DNA from: Candidatus Heimdallarchaeota archaeon
GTDB taxonomy: Archaea; Asgardarchaeota; Heimdallarchaeia; JABLTI01
Assembly: GCA_019056785.1 (NCBI GenBank)
Contig: DXJV01000100.1
Coordinates: 10,796 to 74,795, forward strand
Direction of reading: 5' to 3'
DNA: 64,000 nucleotides
The notes beneath the pieces were generated by a model that was not told where the DNA came from, did not search any database, and worked only from the letters and a program-made list of their open reading frames with translations. Below are positions 37,184-40,400 of the stretch, piece by piece. Numbering within the stretch: the stretch's first letter is position 1; the number at the start of each line of letters is the position of its first letter. A program made the position numbers and the translations under genes.

Positions 37184-37208
37184 GGACGTGTGGCTTAGTT
37201 TGGATAGA
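37184..37208 (+). tRNA. 5' fragment (positions 1-23) of a tRNA, probably tRNA-Arg
   Basis: GGACGTG TG GCTT AGTTTGGATA GA; acceptor strand is complementary to CACGTCC at 40390-40396; A20 in the D-loop. Confidence 0.8.
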
Positions 37209-37338
37209 TGTTTTTGAAAAGAAAAATCCTAACTTGAAAAAATTTGTTCATAACATTAGCAATTATAATTATTTGATTATAATGATTATCATGAGCTAAA
37301 TTATCCAAAAAATAAATAAAAAAGTGTAAGAAAGTATT

Positions 37339-37713
37339 TTACTCTTTTATAGTTCCTTCTTCTTTTGCTTTTTCAATCAAAGGTAGTAAATCCATTGTTG
37401 GGATCATTGGCGCATATTGTCCCCAGGTCCACTTATCTTTTTTGTTGCGAATCTTACCTATAATATAGTAACCAAAACGATAACTATCTTTGAATTTATA
37501 TTTCGCTATTTGGTCCTTCTCACCTTCTGATTTTTGGTGTTCTAAACGTAAAATTTCAAACACTTTTTCAGGGTTATCGGTTTCTGTCATGTAAGTAGCA
37601 GCAACCACTTTCAAGAAATGGTGTCCTTTTCGAGAAATATCTTTGACTTTGATCAATCGCCCTATTTCTTTTTGCTTTTTCCTTTCAATAAATTCTTCGG
37701 CTGTTTCAGCCAC
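37339..37713 (-). CDS. Hypothetical protein (start probably GTG at 37713)
   Basis: Protein-like frame with YRFGYYIIGK..WTWGQYAPMIP. Confidence 0.7.
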   Translation of the reverse strand: MAETAEEFIERKKQKEIGRLIKVKDISRKGHHFLKVVAATYMTETDNPEKVFEILRLEHQKSEGEKDQIAKYKFKDSYRFGYYIIGKIRNKKDKWTWGQYAPMIPTMDLLPLIEKAKEEGTIKE

Positions 37714-38192
37714 AATTATCACCGTAGGTAAAATAATTCTTAGATTAATAAAAATTATGTTACCAGAAATCACAATTAATTTAAAATAATCAGTTATTCG
37801 GTATTTTTATTTTGTTCTATTTGCTCTTCGGCTTTTTGTTCTTCCTTTACGATCATTCATCAGTTGGGAATATTCTCAGTCAGATTTTTTTAATTTGTAT
37901 TTTTATATTTACAAAATTCAAGAGAATACCCACAAATAAATAGAACTCGAAAAGTTTGAATAATTCCTTGAAAATCATTTTCATCTGTTATTTGTAGTAT
38001 TTCATCTATTTGTTTCAAAGTATATTGGTTGTTACATTTATCAGTCAAAAATTAATCACGACTTTTTATTCAATTTCTGGTACATGAAGTTATTTTAGAT
38101 TGTTCGGACTTAACGTCTTTGGAGCAGACTCGCGTCGTTTCTATTCATCATCCAAGGTTCACAACGCTTCTTGTGTGAAGTTATTGATTCTC

Positions 38193-38360
38193 TCATTTAT
38201 TATTCATTTTTTTACAAATAAAGGAACTGTTTTCATAGGTGATGCCTATCGTATCGCCTTTTTTAATTCCCATCGCATTTACTATCTCAATTGGTATGGA
38301 GAGTTTGTATACTCCTGCATTATAAATTACTTTTCGTTCAAAAACTATTTTTCCTGACAT
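38193..38360 (-). CDS. AbrB/MazE/SpoVT-family DNA-binding protein, 55 aa (not in ORF track)
   Basis: MSGKIVFERKVIYNAGVYKLSIPIEIVNAMGIKKGDTIGITYENSSFICKKMNNK. Confidence 0.85.
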   Translation of the reverse strand: MSGKIVFERKVIYNAGVYKLSIPIEIVNAMGIKKGDTIGITYENSSFICKKMNNK

Positions 38361-38413
38361 ATGCTTTTTCCCTATCTTTTCTTCTTGTGCAGAATATTTA
38401 AATATTATCGTTT

Positions 38414-38432
38414 CTATACATAATATGTATAG
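38414..38432. promoter_or_regulatory. Perfect 9-1-9 inverted repeat (putative operator) between the divergent AbrB-like and nuclease genes
   Basis: CTATACATA-A-TATGTATAG. Confidence 0.55.
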
Positions 38433-38449
38433 TTTATGTACGGTAAATT

Positions 38450-40183
38450 ATGATGCTCAATCTATTATTCAGACAAGAAAAAAAACAAAGAGGTTCAAAA
38501 ACAATTATTTATAGAAATGGCACCATATTGTTGAAAAGCAAAACATCAAAATATGGAATGAACATTCCTAGTGGTTTATACAGGTGGAAAAAATTACCAA
38601 AAAAGAAAAGTGATGATAAATTAAAAGTAGTTGTTGATTTTTGGCATAAAAAAAACAAATTCGAAAGTGTACTTTGTATCATTTACCATAATAATTACTC
38701 TTGTTATTTACGACCTGTAAATAATAAAAATCAAGAACAAAATATTTTACAACTTATGAAAAAGAATGCTATTTTAAAATGTGTAATCCCAAATAAAGTA
38801 AGTAAAGATGAACAGATTCCATCAACCGATTATTTAAAGCAAGCATTATTTTTAGCAGAGCAAGTTGTTTTACCTAACATTGATACCTTACAATTAGTTA
38901 CTTTTGGCAGAATGCAAAATACAAAATACGAAATTTATTCAGATAATGAAATGAATCTTTACTTAAAATGCCGTGGTAAAATAAGTAGAAAGGGCGTTTT
39001 AATTTTATCTTCAGAAATTTCCCGTTATATACAAAATTGGTTTGAGAAAGAAATTTTATGTTTGTGTTCAATAAATGCTAAACCACCAATAGTTTTAACT
39101 TTAACAACTCGCAAGAGAAACTCCACAAAAAAAATTTACAAAGAATTAAACCTTCCCTACTATGGAGATCCAAAAGAAGGAATAGTATATTTTACATCCA
39201 ATGGTTTAGAATTAACTAAACAAGCAAGAAAGGACTTACAGTTGAAATCCCAACTAAGTAATAATGGTTATAATTTTCTTAATCTCAAATCTACTCTTAG
39301 ACATGGGAAACATTACAACAGGGAGTTTGAACAACGAGTTAGAGATTTAATTGGTAGAGCTTTTAGAGATTACGAGGACACTATTCTTTTATCAGAAGTT
39401 GAGCTCACACTTACGGATGATGATTTTCCTTTAACTGGTTGGGATAAACATCGTTTTGATTCTTTTATTTATCATCAAGATGATTTTCATGATTATGTAG
39501 CTTTAATTGAACTAAAGACATCTATCGAGCCTTCAAATAAATGTGGAATTATCGAGAGTGCAATTGCGAAGCTCTACCAGTTTAGAAAACGCATAAATAA
39601 AAAAACTATTGTTCCAATCCTTATTATTAATGAAGATATATATTATCAAGGGGAAATAGCCACCAAAGCGTATGGGGACTTGTGTAACGTCATTCTAATT
39701 GGTCGAAAGGAATTAGTTGCCTTGATAGAAAACCCATCTCATCTTCATAAAAGAATACAAAACTACCTTGACACTCAAGGCTTTAAACAATCTCCCCCAC
39801 CGATAAAAATGCGCGCAATCAATTCAGTATCCGAAGGTTCTGCATTTGAAGAAAAAATAAAGGACAAATTGCTAATTGAAGGTTACAAGGTCCAATCAAA
39901 TGTGCTTTACAGAGTACAATCTAAACATATGGAAATTGACCATATAACAACTAAACAAGATGAGAAAATACTTGTTAGTTGTAAGGATCATAAAACAATA
40001 ACTTCTGAATGGAAAATTCTCCTAAAATTATCTGACATTTTAAACATTATAGTTCTTAGAAAAGCATTACTTGGCTTTTCACAAGCTCGATTGTATGTGA
40101 AAGTTCATCCTAAAATAAAAGACAAGATCACACAAATTCTAAATCTTAAAGAAATTTCCGAAGTGGATGTTTTTATAGAATAA
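38450..40183 (+). CDS. Protein with two C-terminal PD-(D/E)xK restriction-endonuclease-like domains
   Basis: FEQRV..RFDSF..LIELKT and FEEKI..EIDHI..LVSCKD. Confidence 0.75.
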   Translation: MMLNLLFRQEKKQRGSKTIIYRNGTILLKSKTSKYGMNIPSGLYRWKKLPKKKSDDKLKVVVDFWHKKNKFESVLCIIYHNNYSCYLRPVNNKNQEQNILQLMKKNAILKCVIPNKVSKDEQIPSTDYLKQALFLAEQVVLPNIDTLQLVTFGRMQNTKYEIYSDNEMNLYLKCRGKISRKGVLILSSEISRYIQNWFEKEILCLCSINAKPPIVLTLTTRKRNSTKKIYKELNLPYYGDPKEGIVYFTSNGLELTKQARKDLQLKSQLSNNGYNFLNLKSTLRHGKHYNREFEQRVRDLIGRAFRDYEDTILLSEVELTLTDDDFPLTGWDKHRFDSFIYHQDDFHDYVALIELKTSIEPSNKCGIIESAIAKLYQFRKRINKKTIVPILIINEDIYYQGEIATKAYGDLCNVILIGRKELVALIENPSHLHKRIQNYLDTQGFKQSPPPIKMRAINSVSEGSAFEEKIKDKLLIEGYKVQSNVLYRVQSKHMEIDHITTKQDEKILVSCKDHKTITSEWKILLKLSDILNIIVLRKALLGFSQARLYVKVHPKIKDKITQILNLKEISEVDVFIE

Positions 40184-40185
40184 AG

Positions 40186-40294
40186 TGGCGGGTGCGGTCA
40201 GATTCGAACTGACGACTTCCTCTAACTGGAAATCCAAGCGCACCAGGAGATCACTCCGCAGGGAGGCGCATTATCCGTGCTATACTACGCACCC
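40186..40294 (-). tRNA. tRNA-Arg(GCG) with an intron of about 31 nt (40223-40253), CCA encoded
   Basis: GGGTGCG/CGCACCC acceptor stem, GGATA D-loop, CCTCC-CT-GCG-GA, GTCAG-TTCGAAT-CTGAC T-arm, G73. Confidence 0.85.
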
Positions 40295-40376
40295 AATCAG
40301 TAATTGGAATTGATGTTATGTCCTTTTTAAAAATATGGATTCTAATTATAAATAAATTATTTGCAAATGTTCCTTT

Positions 40377-40400
40377 GTTCGAATCCGCTCACGTCCGCCA
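40377..40400 (+). tRNA. 3' fragment (positions 53-76) of the same tRNA as 37184-37208
   Basis: GTTCGAATCCGCTCACGTCCGCCA followed by a T-run. Confidence 0.85.

Follow-up and report, generated by a model that had tools for sequence, protein, structure and literature searches.

A tRNA-Arg gene of an Asgard archaeon lies in two pieces, a 5' part and a 3' part with matching acceptor strands, on either side of an island that carries another tRNA-Arg gene. This arrangement raises the question of how the gene was broken and which gene now serves in its place. The window in which it was found is a stretch of 64,000 nucleotides from contig DXJV01000100.1 of a metagenome-assembled genome (MAG; hereafter G000) of 2.87 Mb in 102 contigs, which is 82.5% complete and in which only about 30 tRNAs are detectable. 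NCBI labels MAGs of the host genus Candidatus Heimdallarchaeota. An earlier, sequence-only reading offered three explanations, namely two integrations followed by a deletion, an element that destroys and complements the host tRNA, and a trans-spliced multi-part tRNA. In this study, the locus was compared with related genomes (G numbers) and contigs (L numbers). The features of the locus are listed in Table 1.

Table 1. Features of the broken tRNA-Arg locus, in positions of the window.
Feature	Position	Strand	Remarks
P1 (TATA-type promoter) of the displaced tRNA-Arg gene	37140..37154	+	ATAGTTTTATAAATT, 29 nt upstream of the 5' stub
5' stub, tRNA positions 1-23 (25 nt)	37184..37208	+	displaced 5' end of the target tRNA-Arg, attL-like
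Left end of the inserted module	37209..37221	+	T-rich junction TGTTTTTGAAAAG
144-aa ORF	37339..37773	-	variable cargo; member of a small uncharacterised family
55-aa AbrB/MazE-like DNA-binding protein (predicted)	38193..38360	-	divergent from the nuclease-like gene
577-aa protein, conserved core gene of the module	38450..40183	+	beta-rich N-terminal half, then two PD-(D/E)xK nuclease-like domains
tRNA-Arg(GCG), module-borne, E-type	40186..40294	-	exon 1 40294-40254, 31-nt intron 40253-40223, exon 2 40222-40186
Near-palindromic TATA element P2, promoter of the internal tRNA	40322..40338	.	between the internal tRNA and the 3' stub
3' stub, tRNA positions 53-76 with CCA and T-run	40377..40405	+	tRNA part 40377-40400

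The 5' stub consists, in this order, of the acceptor strand GGACGTG, TG, the D-stem strand GCTT, the D-loop AGTTTGGATA and GA, and a T-run follows directly 3' of its final nucleotide. The 3' stub runs from G53 through the T-loop TTCGAAT, the T-stem strand CCGCT, the acceptor strand CACGTCC and G73 to CCA, and is followed by TTTTT. The two acceptor strands form 7/7 Watson-Crick pairs. The sequence-only reading had described a TATA box before positions 1-23, positions 53-76 with CCA and a T-run, perfect pairing of the acceptor strands, and a complete tRNA-Arg(GCG) with another acceptor stem on the opposite strand of the island; all of these were confirmed. The T-rich junction beyond the 5' stub is likely to act as a terminator for the stub transcript. 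After the stub, two of the three reading frames meet a stop codon within 5 codons, and the remaining one does so after about 27. Each stub occurs once in the assembly when up to three mismatches are allowed. The reading, which had not found positions 24-52 in the island, had also proposed looking elsewhere for them and for an intact gene of the form GGACGTG...CACGTCC. No such gene was found in the 2.87-Mb assembly, and a pattern search detected no 24-52 segment in the island or in the whole of this 82.5% complete assembly. The plus strand of the island contains no anticodon-arm-like hairpin beside AGCG. The P1 15-mer also lies upstream of the intact tRNA-Arg(GCG) in G007, G010 and L058 and of the inner stubs of G004 and G005, and G008 has a one-base variant of it.

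The complete tRNA-Arg(GCG) gene in the island, located 82 nt from the 3' stub, has the acceptor stem GGGTGCG/CGCACCC and an intron of 31 nt after position 39. It was found by ARAGORN in intron mode only and has an Rfam score of 41.8 bits; default ARAGORN and the Rfam gathering mode both missed it. In the predicted fold of the spliced tRNA the acceptor stem has 7 bp and the anticodon and T arms are formed; of the D arm, only a part was predicted. This E-type gene is the sole tRNA-Arg(GCG) of the G000 assembly. Since CGT and CGC together amount to 13.6 per 1000 codons, the isoacceptor is needed. The surviving module-borne gene is probably active. P2 is kept upstream of the E-type tRNA in G004, G005, L043, L045 and L059, and also upstream of the intact tRNA of G003.

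The 577-aa protein has no match in Pfam, and its orthologues were recovered down to 35% identity. Foldseek related its AlphaFold2 model (mean pLDDT 81) to AF1548, Card1/Cdn1, MspJI and BsmI at probabilities of 0.93-1.0. In the first nuclease-like domain D337/E354/K356 are invariant, and the second has D497 and S510-C511-K512, that is, S-C-K instead of E-x-K. A convergent tRNA-Arg(GCG), a pseudogene in the case of L058, adjoins the gene in seven distinct lineages, with 2-7 nt between its CCA end and the end of the gene. Paralogues with 25-34% identity are present in multiple copies in the genus, mostly away from tRNAs, as expected for defence cargo. The 55-aa protein matched Pfam MazE_antitoxin with an E-value of 3.9e-5 (24.0 bits, just below the cut-off of 24.7) and TIGR02609 with 9e-5, and is kept in G004 (77% by tblastx). 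The 144-aa ORF had no match in Pfam, NCBIfam, PADLOC or PHROG, and G004 has a HEPN-like ORF at its position. No tyrosine recombinase (PF00589, PF16795) was found in the ORFs of the island, in the homologous modules or in the whole G000 assembly. The relatives have 1-6 integrase genes per genome, located on contigs other than that of the locus.

The sequence-only reading had also suggested a search for the empty locus in relatives, and such a locus was found. G003, contig L058 and G007 form a near-isogenic trio with the empty site, the occupied site and a derived form, respectively. The alignment of L058 with G003 (91.6% identity over 4.7 kb) ends exactly at nucleotide 25 of the intact tRNA of G003. 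Compared with G007 (89%), L058 has an extra 3.3 kb between the gene for a ferredoxin-domain flavodoxin (Fer4) and the tRNA behind P1. The empty site thus coincides with the boundary of the att segment in G003, and G007 is without the 3.3-kb segment. In L058 the stub is followed by cargo, the nuclease-like gene, a pseudo-tRNA that is truncated at its 5' end and has its anticodon altered from GCG to ACG, and then P1 with an intact tRNA-Arg(GCG). Nucleotides 1-25 occur twice in L058, at 5090-5114 and again from 8366, where the intact tRNA begins. The tRNA 5' part is therefore directly repeated at both ends of the module in L058, whereas the window has the left copy only. Likewise, an intact, rebuilt tRNA stands behind P1 to the right of the module in L058, whereas the window keeps positions 53-76 only.

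The left junction is recurrent. Seven 5' stubs in five genomes (this window, L058 and G002 with one each, G004 and G005 with two each) all end after nucleotide 25, which is canonical position 23, and they differ in sequence and have different promoters. Directly after the stub the sequence is CTCTTTTAG in the relatives and TGTTTTTGA in this window. On the right side, the module tRNA is intact in the window, G004, G005, L043, L045 and L059, and the opposite-strand copy 60-115 nt away is broken. The homologous 3' remnant starts at position 40/41 in G004, at 52 in L043 and at 53 in the window. It is mutated in G005, L045 and L059, with changes at invariant positions in G005 (T-loop TTCCAAT, end GTCA) and L045 (TACAAAT, GTTA); in L058 a complete tRNA is found at the same place. 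Wherever a 5' exon of tRNA-Arg(GCG) was detectable in a genome of the genus, it was present exactly once. The gene is intact and of the host type in G003, G007, G008 and G010, and of the module type, accompanied by broken host-type pieces, in G000, G004 and G005.

The module is more similar between lineages than its flanks are. Between the window and G004 the identities of module and flanks are 74% vs 67% for nucleotides and 68% vs 54% for proteins, and between L058 and G004 they are 84% vs 70%. The module is absent from G003 and G007, the closest relatives of L058. The same tRNA also has arrays of 3' fragments, two downstream in G003, one in G007 and five in L043, which mark tRNA-Arg(GCG) as a hot spot; such fragments start at positions 39-57 in G003, G004, G005, G007 and L043. 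Separately, chromosomal rearrangements around the target tRNA were observed between G008 and G010.

At this locus the Asgard genus has a two-sided hot spot of integration into tRNA-Arg(GCG). The junction recurs, empty and occupied sites exist, and the two tRNA copies have decayed reciprocally. We therefore consider it probable that the broken gene results from a site-specific insertion after position 23, which rebuilt the tRNA, and from the later loss of the redundant copy. A mobile module, the conserved core of which comprises the AbrB-like gene, the tandem PD-(D/E)xK nuclease-like gene and, convergent to it, the intron-bearing tRNA-Arg(GCG) behind a promoter of its own, would have inserted into the tRNA-Arg gene of the host, exactly behind nucleotide 25. 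In this way positions 1-23 and the promoter of the host gene would have been shifted to the left, where they form the 5' stub. On the right side, a promoter and a 5' part supplied by the module would have been joined to the remaining tRNA sequence of the host, resulting in two head-to-head tRNA-Arg(GCG) genes. Because the module carries its own tRNA-Arg(GCG), the host-type gene could decay. In the G000 lineage the rebuilt copy would later have lost its promoter and positions 1-52 by deletion, which left the 3' stub, and the module-borne tRNA would have become the sole decoder of the CGU/CGC codons. In L058 the module tRNA was lost and the rebuilt copy kept, the reverse of the outcome in the window and five other lineages. 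We infer this order of events for G000, together with a recombinase for the insertion, possibly one acting in trans.

Some facts count against this insertion reading. One is the absence of a tyrosine recombinase from the island, the homologous modules and the G000 assembly. The window no longer contains a second copy of positions 1-23, and for this reason the duplication is deduced from L058. The D-arm of the window stub and the junction TGTTTTTGA are unlike those of other genus members; the former is similar to that of Arg(CCT)-type tRNAs from another family. The 3' stub of the window is identical (24/24) to that of G004, which pairs with the local stubs of G004 only by way of two G-U pairs. 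This identity and this pairing suggest that part of the 3' stub may travel with the elements and may not be derived from the host. In L044 an E-type tRNA lies behind P1 without stubs, and in G010 the host-type tRNA adjoins a 36-codon remnant of the nuclease-like gene, so that the labels "host" and "element" depend on the lineage. The low tRNA count and the incompleteness of the MAG also weigh against the reading.

Another interpretation is that the module was inserted by its own nuclease. The tandem PD-(D/E)xK protein, or a LAGLIDADG-HTH protein in distant versions of the module, would cut tRNA-Arg near 23/24, and repair of the break would copy the module in without an integrase. The spare tRNA-Arg(GCG) would make the loss of the target tolerable and the module indispensable. 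We regard this homing-like replacement as rather unlikely. The close spacing of the nuclease-like gene and the tRNA is kept down to about 35% protein identity, the junction is exact in all seven stubs, and no copy of the module has an integrase. Moreover, the fold is similar to that of the restriction enzyme BsmI, which is a monomer with two catalytic sites; the 577-aa gene has no methyltransferase gene as a neighbour; and the LAGLIDADG_3 protein that adjoins the module in L043 and L045 scores above the Pfam cut-off (28-34 bits vs 22.5). A role of a homing-endonuclease homologue in site-specific insertion beside tRNA-Arg has also been suggested for Heimdallarchaeum (PMC8813620). In L058, however, the segment 1-25 is duplicated with its own promoter and the tRNA is intact, which fits conservative recombination with an attP and not simple homing, where insertion at the cleavage site would leave the target unduplicated. 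In addition, the spare tRNA of L058 decayed and the target survived, the paralogues of the nuclease mostly lie elsewhere than beside tRNAs, and nuclease activity is a prediction from the fold. There is likewise only a small chance that an element without integrase used its own nuclease to enter tRNA-Arg(GCG) after 23 and brought a replacement promoter, a 5' part and a sequence-diverged spare tRNA, with reciprocal decay repeatedly leaving the tRNA of the element as the sole CGU/CGC decoder. If this were true, the element would be locked into the genome as the carrier of that decoder.

Among the three explanations of the sequence-only reading, two integrations followed by a deletion came closest, since the left break is indeed site-specific in seven stubs. 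For the right break a later 5' truncation fits better than its T-loop att site, because the start of the remnant differs by lineage and the tRNA is whole in L058. Two independent integrations, at a D-arm site after 23 and a T-loop site at 52/53, with loss of 24-52 by recombination between the elements and the 3' stub as the attR repeat of a 3'-targeting element, are in our view improbable. The 3'-fragment arrays are typical of such elements and the L043 remnant beside the module tRNA also starts at 52, but no 3' fragment of the same orientation lies to the left of the remnant and the island has no second element. As for an element that destroys and complements the host tRNA, the outcome agrees, for the island tRNA is the sole tRNA-Arg(GCG) in G000, G004 and G005. 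The mechanism does not, because the insertion in L058 itself rebuilds an intact tRNA, and the destruction of the host copy thus came after insertion. A split or tri-split tRNA, the separately transcribed pieces of which would be joined in trans with a third piece from elsewhere, is very improbable. In its favour, each piece is preceded by a TATA-like run and followed by a T-run, their acceptor strands pair throughout, many non-canonical tRNA introns occur in G000 (some in the D-loop), and 17% of the genome is missing from the assembly. The upstream TATA-like run, however, is indistinguishable from the AT-rich background, and the trailer-leader duplex (-6.7 kcal/mol vs a shuffle mean of -5.9) was matched or beaten by 32% of shuffles, in accord with the earlier remark that no complementary leaders were seen. 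Furthermore, the ancestral gene in G003 is continuous up to the exact break, the stub of L058 lies next to an intact gene, the middle piece is missing from island and assembly, an intact gene for the isoacceptor already lies at a distance of 82 nt, and in relatives the 3' remnant is decaying, with changes at invariant positions in G005 and L045. The trans-spliced tRNA is thus not supported, given the absent 24-52 piece, the lack of leader/trailer pairing and the unconserved pieces. That an assembly collapse or chimera removed an intact tRNA is hardly credible. The MAG is fragmented into 102 contigs, and the low-coverage ENA contig L080 diverges from the window upstream of 38911, but over 38911-42257, a segment with both the internal tRNA and the 3' stub, L080 agrees with the window at 99.7% identity. 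Independent assemblies also show the arrangement, with stubs, nuclease-like gene, reversed tRNA and 3' remnant in G004 and G005 (L041 is near-identical to G005), and all of these except stubs in L043, L045 and L059.

The insertion reading means that the same logic of integration into the 5' half of a tRNA gene operates in an Asgard genus, without a recognisable integrase. The module copy has taken the place of the host copy in no fewer than three genomes of the genus, namely G000, G004 and G005, and contigs L043, L045 and L059 are in the same state. The locus is a clear case in nature of the fixation of a mobile element by way of an essential tRNA. The locus also illustrates how elements mediate the exchange of promoters, introns and arms of a tRNA gene. 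In the accessible part of the related literature we found no description of a module with a second complete tRNA of the targeted isoacceptor. The locus further gives a warning: in intron-rich archaea, promoter-bearing tRNA halves with matching acceptors can mimic split tRNAs and yet be integration scars.

Split and tri-split tRNA genes are known from Nanoarchaeum equitans and Caldivirga maquilingensis. The present pieces resemble them in having promoter-like and terminator-like signals of their own and complementary acceptor strands, but they lack complementary leader and trailer sequences and an anticodon piece, are not conserved, and lie alongside an intact isoacceptor gene. Classical integration into the 3' end (SSV1, pNOB8-type elements, bacterial islands) leaves an intact tRNA with 3' direct repeats, which is also seen at this tRNA in G003 and G007, and the fragment arrays in G004, G005 and L043 are of the same kind. 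The left break of the window, however, is a 5' stub, which that mechanism never makes, and no intact tRNA lies in the orientation of the fragments in the window. Like BsmI-type endonucleases, the 577-aa protein combines two tandem PD-(D/E)xK-like domains in a single chain; the Foldseek match has a probability of 0.98 and a TM-score of 0.25 over 450 columns. It differs in sequence (9-10% identity), in the predicted second site, S-C-K instead of E-x-K, and in having no methyltransferase partner. HeimM2 of Ca. Heimdallarchaeum is likewise an Asgard mobile element with a nuclease homologue, in this case of a homing endonuclease, inserted beside tRNA-Arg, and its authors suggest that the nuclease was co-opted for site-specific insertion (PMC8813620). 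Its tRNA is Arg-TCT, its nuclease family and cargo are different, and the accessible part of its report describes neither a broken target nor a spare tRNA (PMC8813620). For pTN3-like integrases of Thermococcales (SSV-type "suicidal" integrases), attB is the tRNA gene's 5' half and the rebuilt tRNA is expressed from a promoter of the element (PMC8371274). As in these elements, the 5' part is targeted in L058, the host promoter and 5' part are displaced, and an intact tRNA is rebuilt behind a promoter supplied by the element (PMC8371274). Rearrangements of the chromosome around the target tRNA are common to pTN3-like elements and to G008 vs G010. Unlike pTN3-like elements, the module has neither a tyrosine recombinase gene nor a split int(N)/int(C) gene in or beside it, resides in an Asgard host, brings along a further complete tRNA of the targeted isoacceptor and has an att segment that ends at position 23.

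The sequence-only reading had described a tRNA gene broken into a 5' and a 3' piece with paired acceptor strands, and all of these features were present in the sequence as described (see the table). The acceptor strands GGACGTG and CACGTCC of the two stubs pair at 7 of 7 positions, and the 5' stub has a TATA element 29 nt upstream and a T-run after it. Each stub occurs only once in the 2.87-Mb assembly (G000), with three mismatches tolerated. A pattern search across the same assembly, the completeness of which is 82.5%, showed no intact gene with the GGACGTG/CACGTCC acceptor stem. 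The reported absence of the middle was also borne out: nothing credible for positions 24-52 was found genome-wide or on the + strand of the island between the stubs. An independent ENA contig matches 38911-42257 of the window at 99.7% identity.

Coordinates of the tRNA pieces, genes and related loci
Feature	Sequence	Position	Strand	Remark
445-aa ORF	window	35766-37103	+	upstream of the stub promoter
5' stub, tRNA positions 1-23	window	37184-37208	+	read from sequence
tRNA-Arg(GCG) of the island	window	40186-40294	-	31-nt intron after position 39; ARAGORN intron mode, Rfam
3' stub, positions 53-76 with encoded CCA, then T-run	window	40377-40400	+	read from sequence
397-aa protein	window	40415-41608	-	between 3' stub and Fer4
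Flavodoxin/4Fe-4S gene (Fer4)	window	41640-42518
Second AbrB-like small gene	window	63358-63507		25 kb from the island
tRNA-Arg(GCG)	G003, L034	7261-7338
tRNA-Arg(GCG)	G007, L037	6047-6155
tRNA-Arg(GCG)	L058	8366-8474
Five tandem tRNA-Arg(GCG) 3' fragments	L043 (JGI contig Ga0311296_1516036)	8897-14269
Diverging end of variant contig	L080 (ENA ERZ2433807 NODE_75754)	1-428		no match in G000
tRNAs with D-loop/D-arm introns	G000	C64:3927-4035, C49:24351-24468, C91:16214-16352, C11:129884-129991

The complete tRNA-Arg(GCG) said to lie on the opposite strand of the island was found as well. It was seen only with the intron mode of ARAGORN and the E-value mode of Rfam (41.8 bits), and was missed by default ARAGORN and by the gathering mode of Rfam. 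This module-borne type (hereafter the E-type) has the acceptor GGGT(G/A)CG, the T-arm GTCAG/CTGAC or GCCAG/CTGGC and a 31-nt intron, and is intact in the window, in the related genomes G004 and G005, and in the contigs L043, L045 and L059. Exactly one tRNA-Arg(GCG) is present in each genome of the genus in which its 5' exon is detectable. About 30 tRNAs were detectable in the G000 assembly, with none for Arg(TCG) or Arg(CCG) among them. In G000 the codons CGT and CGC together account for 13.6 per 1000. Non-canonical tRNA introns are frequent in the genome, and several of its tRNAs carry them in the D-loop or D-arm.

The same-genus MAGs carry the label Candidatus Heimdallarchaeota, and four of them (G003, G007, G008 and G010) have an intact tRNA-Arg(GCG) of the host type, with the acceptor GGGTGTG/CACACCC, behind a homologous promoter and near the same Fer4 gene as in the window. 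In G003 and G007 direct repeats of the 3' part come after the intact tRNA, which is the classical picture. G004, G005 and the metagenomic contig L043 have arrays of up to five 3' fragments with a single-gene cassette between each. These repeats and arrays mark the tRNA-Arg(GCG) gene as a hot spot of 3'-end-targeting elements. In L043 each fragment follows a one-gene cassette (a 359-aa ORF, NosD-like, GNAT and NosD-like); the array is without an integrase and so resembles an integron-style cassette array anchored on a tRNA. The arrays of G004 and G005 are shorter. Fer4 and a 178-aa ORF form a block that precedes the tRNA unit in G010 (L035), whereas in G008 (L036) the block is inverted and lies downstream of the unit; this difference is a rearrangement with its breakpoint at the tRNA.

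On the right flank of the island, the 397-aa protein contains a dsRBD (Pfam dsrm, 34.6 bits) and a stretch similar to RNase III (TIGR02191, E 4e-21, below the cut-off). Proteins related to it, 226-412 aa long, come from other families of the class, and none from the same genus was found, so that it was of no use for synteny within the genus. The 445-aa ORF on the left matches the Loki-CTERM sorting signal weakly (E 0.005, below the cut-off), and relatives lack a homologue of it in the same place.

Seven 5' stubs were recognized, two each in G004 and G005 and one each in L058, G002 and the window. They stand behind three kinds of promoter, and all stop after nucleotide 25 (canonical position 23). 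From there the stubs continue with CTCTTTTAG in the relatives and with TGTTTTTGA in the window, where intact genes read GCGCC, GCGTC or GCACC instead. A comparison with the empty locus, which the sequence-only reading had proposed, was provided by the near-isogenic trio of G003, G007 and L058, in which the empty and occupied states are both seen. The alignment of L058 with G003 (91.6% identity over 4.7 kb) ends exactly at nucleotide 25 of the intact tRNA of G003, and L058 is 89% identical to G007 apart from a 3.3-kb insert between Fer4 and the tRNA behind the P1 promoter. The left part of L058 holds, in order, Fer4, the P2 promoter with a stub, cargo and a 576-aa gene; in the right part, a 5'-truncated pseudo-tRNA (anticodon ACG) is followed by P1 and an intact intron-bearing tRNA-Arg(GCG). 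The trio therefore shows that insertion duplicates positions 1-23, brings a promoter and rebuilds the gene. Judging from these alignments, the 5' stub is apparently a site-specific scar. In the window's own stub the D-arm and the junction motif have diverged, and for the window we infer, rather than see, a second copy of positions 1-23.

The tRNA types are mosaic across lineages: an E-type tRNA stands behind P1 in L044, and an E-like D-arm is joined to a host-like T-arm in G010 and G008. The tRNA-Arg(GCG) genes of G003, G007 and L058, the flanks of which are 89-96% identical, differ in promoter (P2 vs P1), D-arm and the 31-nt intron, which is absent in G003. These differences would fit elements that exchange promoters and introns at att sites.

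The conserved core of the module consists of a 55-aa AbrB/MazE-like gene and the gene of a 577-aa protein, orthologues of which were recovered down to 35% identity. In the distant versions of L043 and L045, a LAGLIDADG-HTH protein replaces the AbrB-like gene. In seven distinct lineages, 2-7 nt separate the end of the 577-aa gene from the CCA end of the convergent tRNA-Arg(GCG), which is a pseudogene in L058, and in G010 a 36-codon remnant of the nuclease-like gene still lies against the tRNA. The AlphaFold2 model of the protein (mean pLDDT 81) has a predicted beta-rich N-terminal half and two putative PD-(D/E)xK-like domains, with Foldseek matches to BsmI, Card1/Cdn1, AF1548 and MspJI. Identity is higher in the module than in the flanks, both between the window and G004 (74% vs 67%) and between L058 and G004 (84% vs 70%), and the closest relatives of L058 are without the module. 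These facts indicate mobility of the module. The 144-aa ORF of the cargo is a member of a small family without annotation.

The 577-aa protein has a multi-copy paralogue family on many contigs of G004, G005 and G010, with ORFs of 650-1050 aa at 25-34% identity; G004 and G005 have 11 matches apiece. Of nine paralogue loci that were inspected, three have a tRNA gene (Val-GAC, Lys-TTT and Met) no more than about 1.5 kb away. The second AbrB-like gene of the window has about 60% protein identity (tblastx) to the G004 copy of the island gene. L080, a 99.7%-identical population variant, diverges from the window upstream of 38911, so that its nuclease gene codes for 423 aa; the contig represents a strain variant or else a low-coverage chimera.

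A remnant of the host-type 3' end was found on the opposite strand, 60-115 nt past the 5' end of the E-type tRNA, in the window, G004, G005, L043, L045 and L059. It starts at position 40/41 in G004, at 52 in L043 and at 53 in the window. The remnant of G005 has a mutated T-loop and no CCA, and decay is further advanced in L045 and L059. In L058 a whole tRNA occupies this place, and the module tRNA is a pseudogene. Because the start varies and invariant positions are mutated, the remnants point to a neutral decay of one gene of a redundant pair, with which the single tRNA-Arg(GCG) per genome is consistent. These comparisons indicate that the 3' stub is probably the leftover of a rebuilt tRNA copy. 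Neither a functional piece nor the second att site, in the T-loop, that the sequence-only reading had offered fits the varying start and the mutations. A remnant of the P1 promoter upstream of the 3' stub was not demonstrated, as 40% of shuffles reach the local alignment score.

We consider it probable that the two stubs are the scar of an integration into the 5' half of a tRNA, with a redundant tRNA lost reciprocally afterwards. It is unlikely, though a minority chance is left to it, that an integrase-free, nuclease-driven element took over the tRNA gene. Searches with Pfam, NCBIfam, PHROGs and PADLOC found no integrase in the ORFs of the island or of its relatives, and neither PF00589 nor PF16795, nor any Xer-type recombinase, was found across the G000 assembly (82.5% complete). 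The relatives carry one to six PF00589 tyrosine recombinases, and their integrases, among them those of G004 and G005, are on other contigs. The insertion may be the work of an integrase supplied in trans, or else of one of the module nucleases. A free viral or plasmid form was looked for in IMG/VR, but none of the contigs there encodes a protein related to the nuclease. Eighteen exact matches to a 16-mer of the tRNA anticodon arm lie in coding DNA and were dismissed as chance.

Inversion models, in which inverted tRNA copies or att sites recombine, were dropped on paper because they cannot yield a reversed intact tRNA that differs in its acceptor stem and stands between a 5' and a 3' stub. 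The trans-spliced multi-part tRNA proposed earlier was rejected despite the many non-canonical tRNA introns of the genome, since no anticodon piece (24-52) was found in the 82.5%-complete assembly, the duplex between the 5'-stub trailer and the 3'-stub leader is equalled or beaten by 32% of shuffles, an intact isoacceptor gene lies beside the stubs, and a stub and an intact gene coexist in L058.

Among archaeal integrases, the rebuilding behaviour is described in a review as unique to the pTN3-like ones (PMC8371274). Like them, the element insertion observed here in L058 duplicates the 5' part of the tRNA and rebuilds the gene with a supplied promoter.
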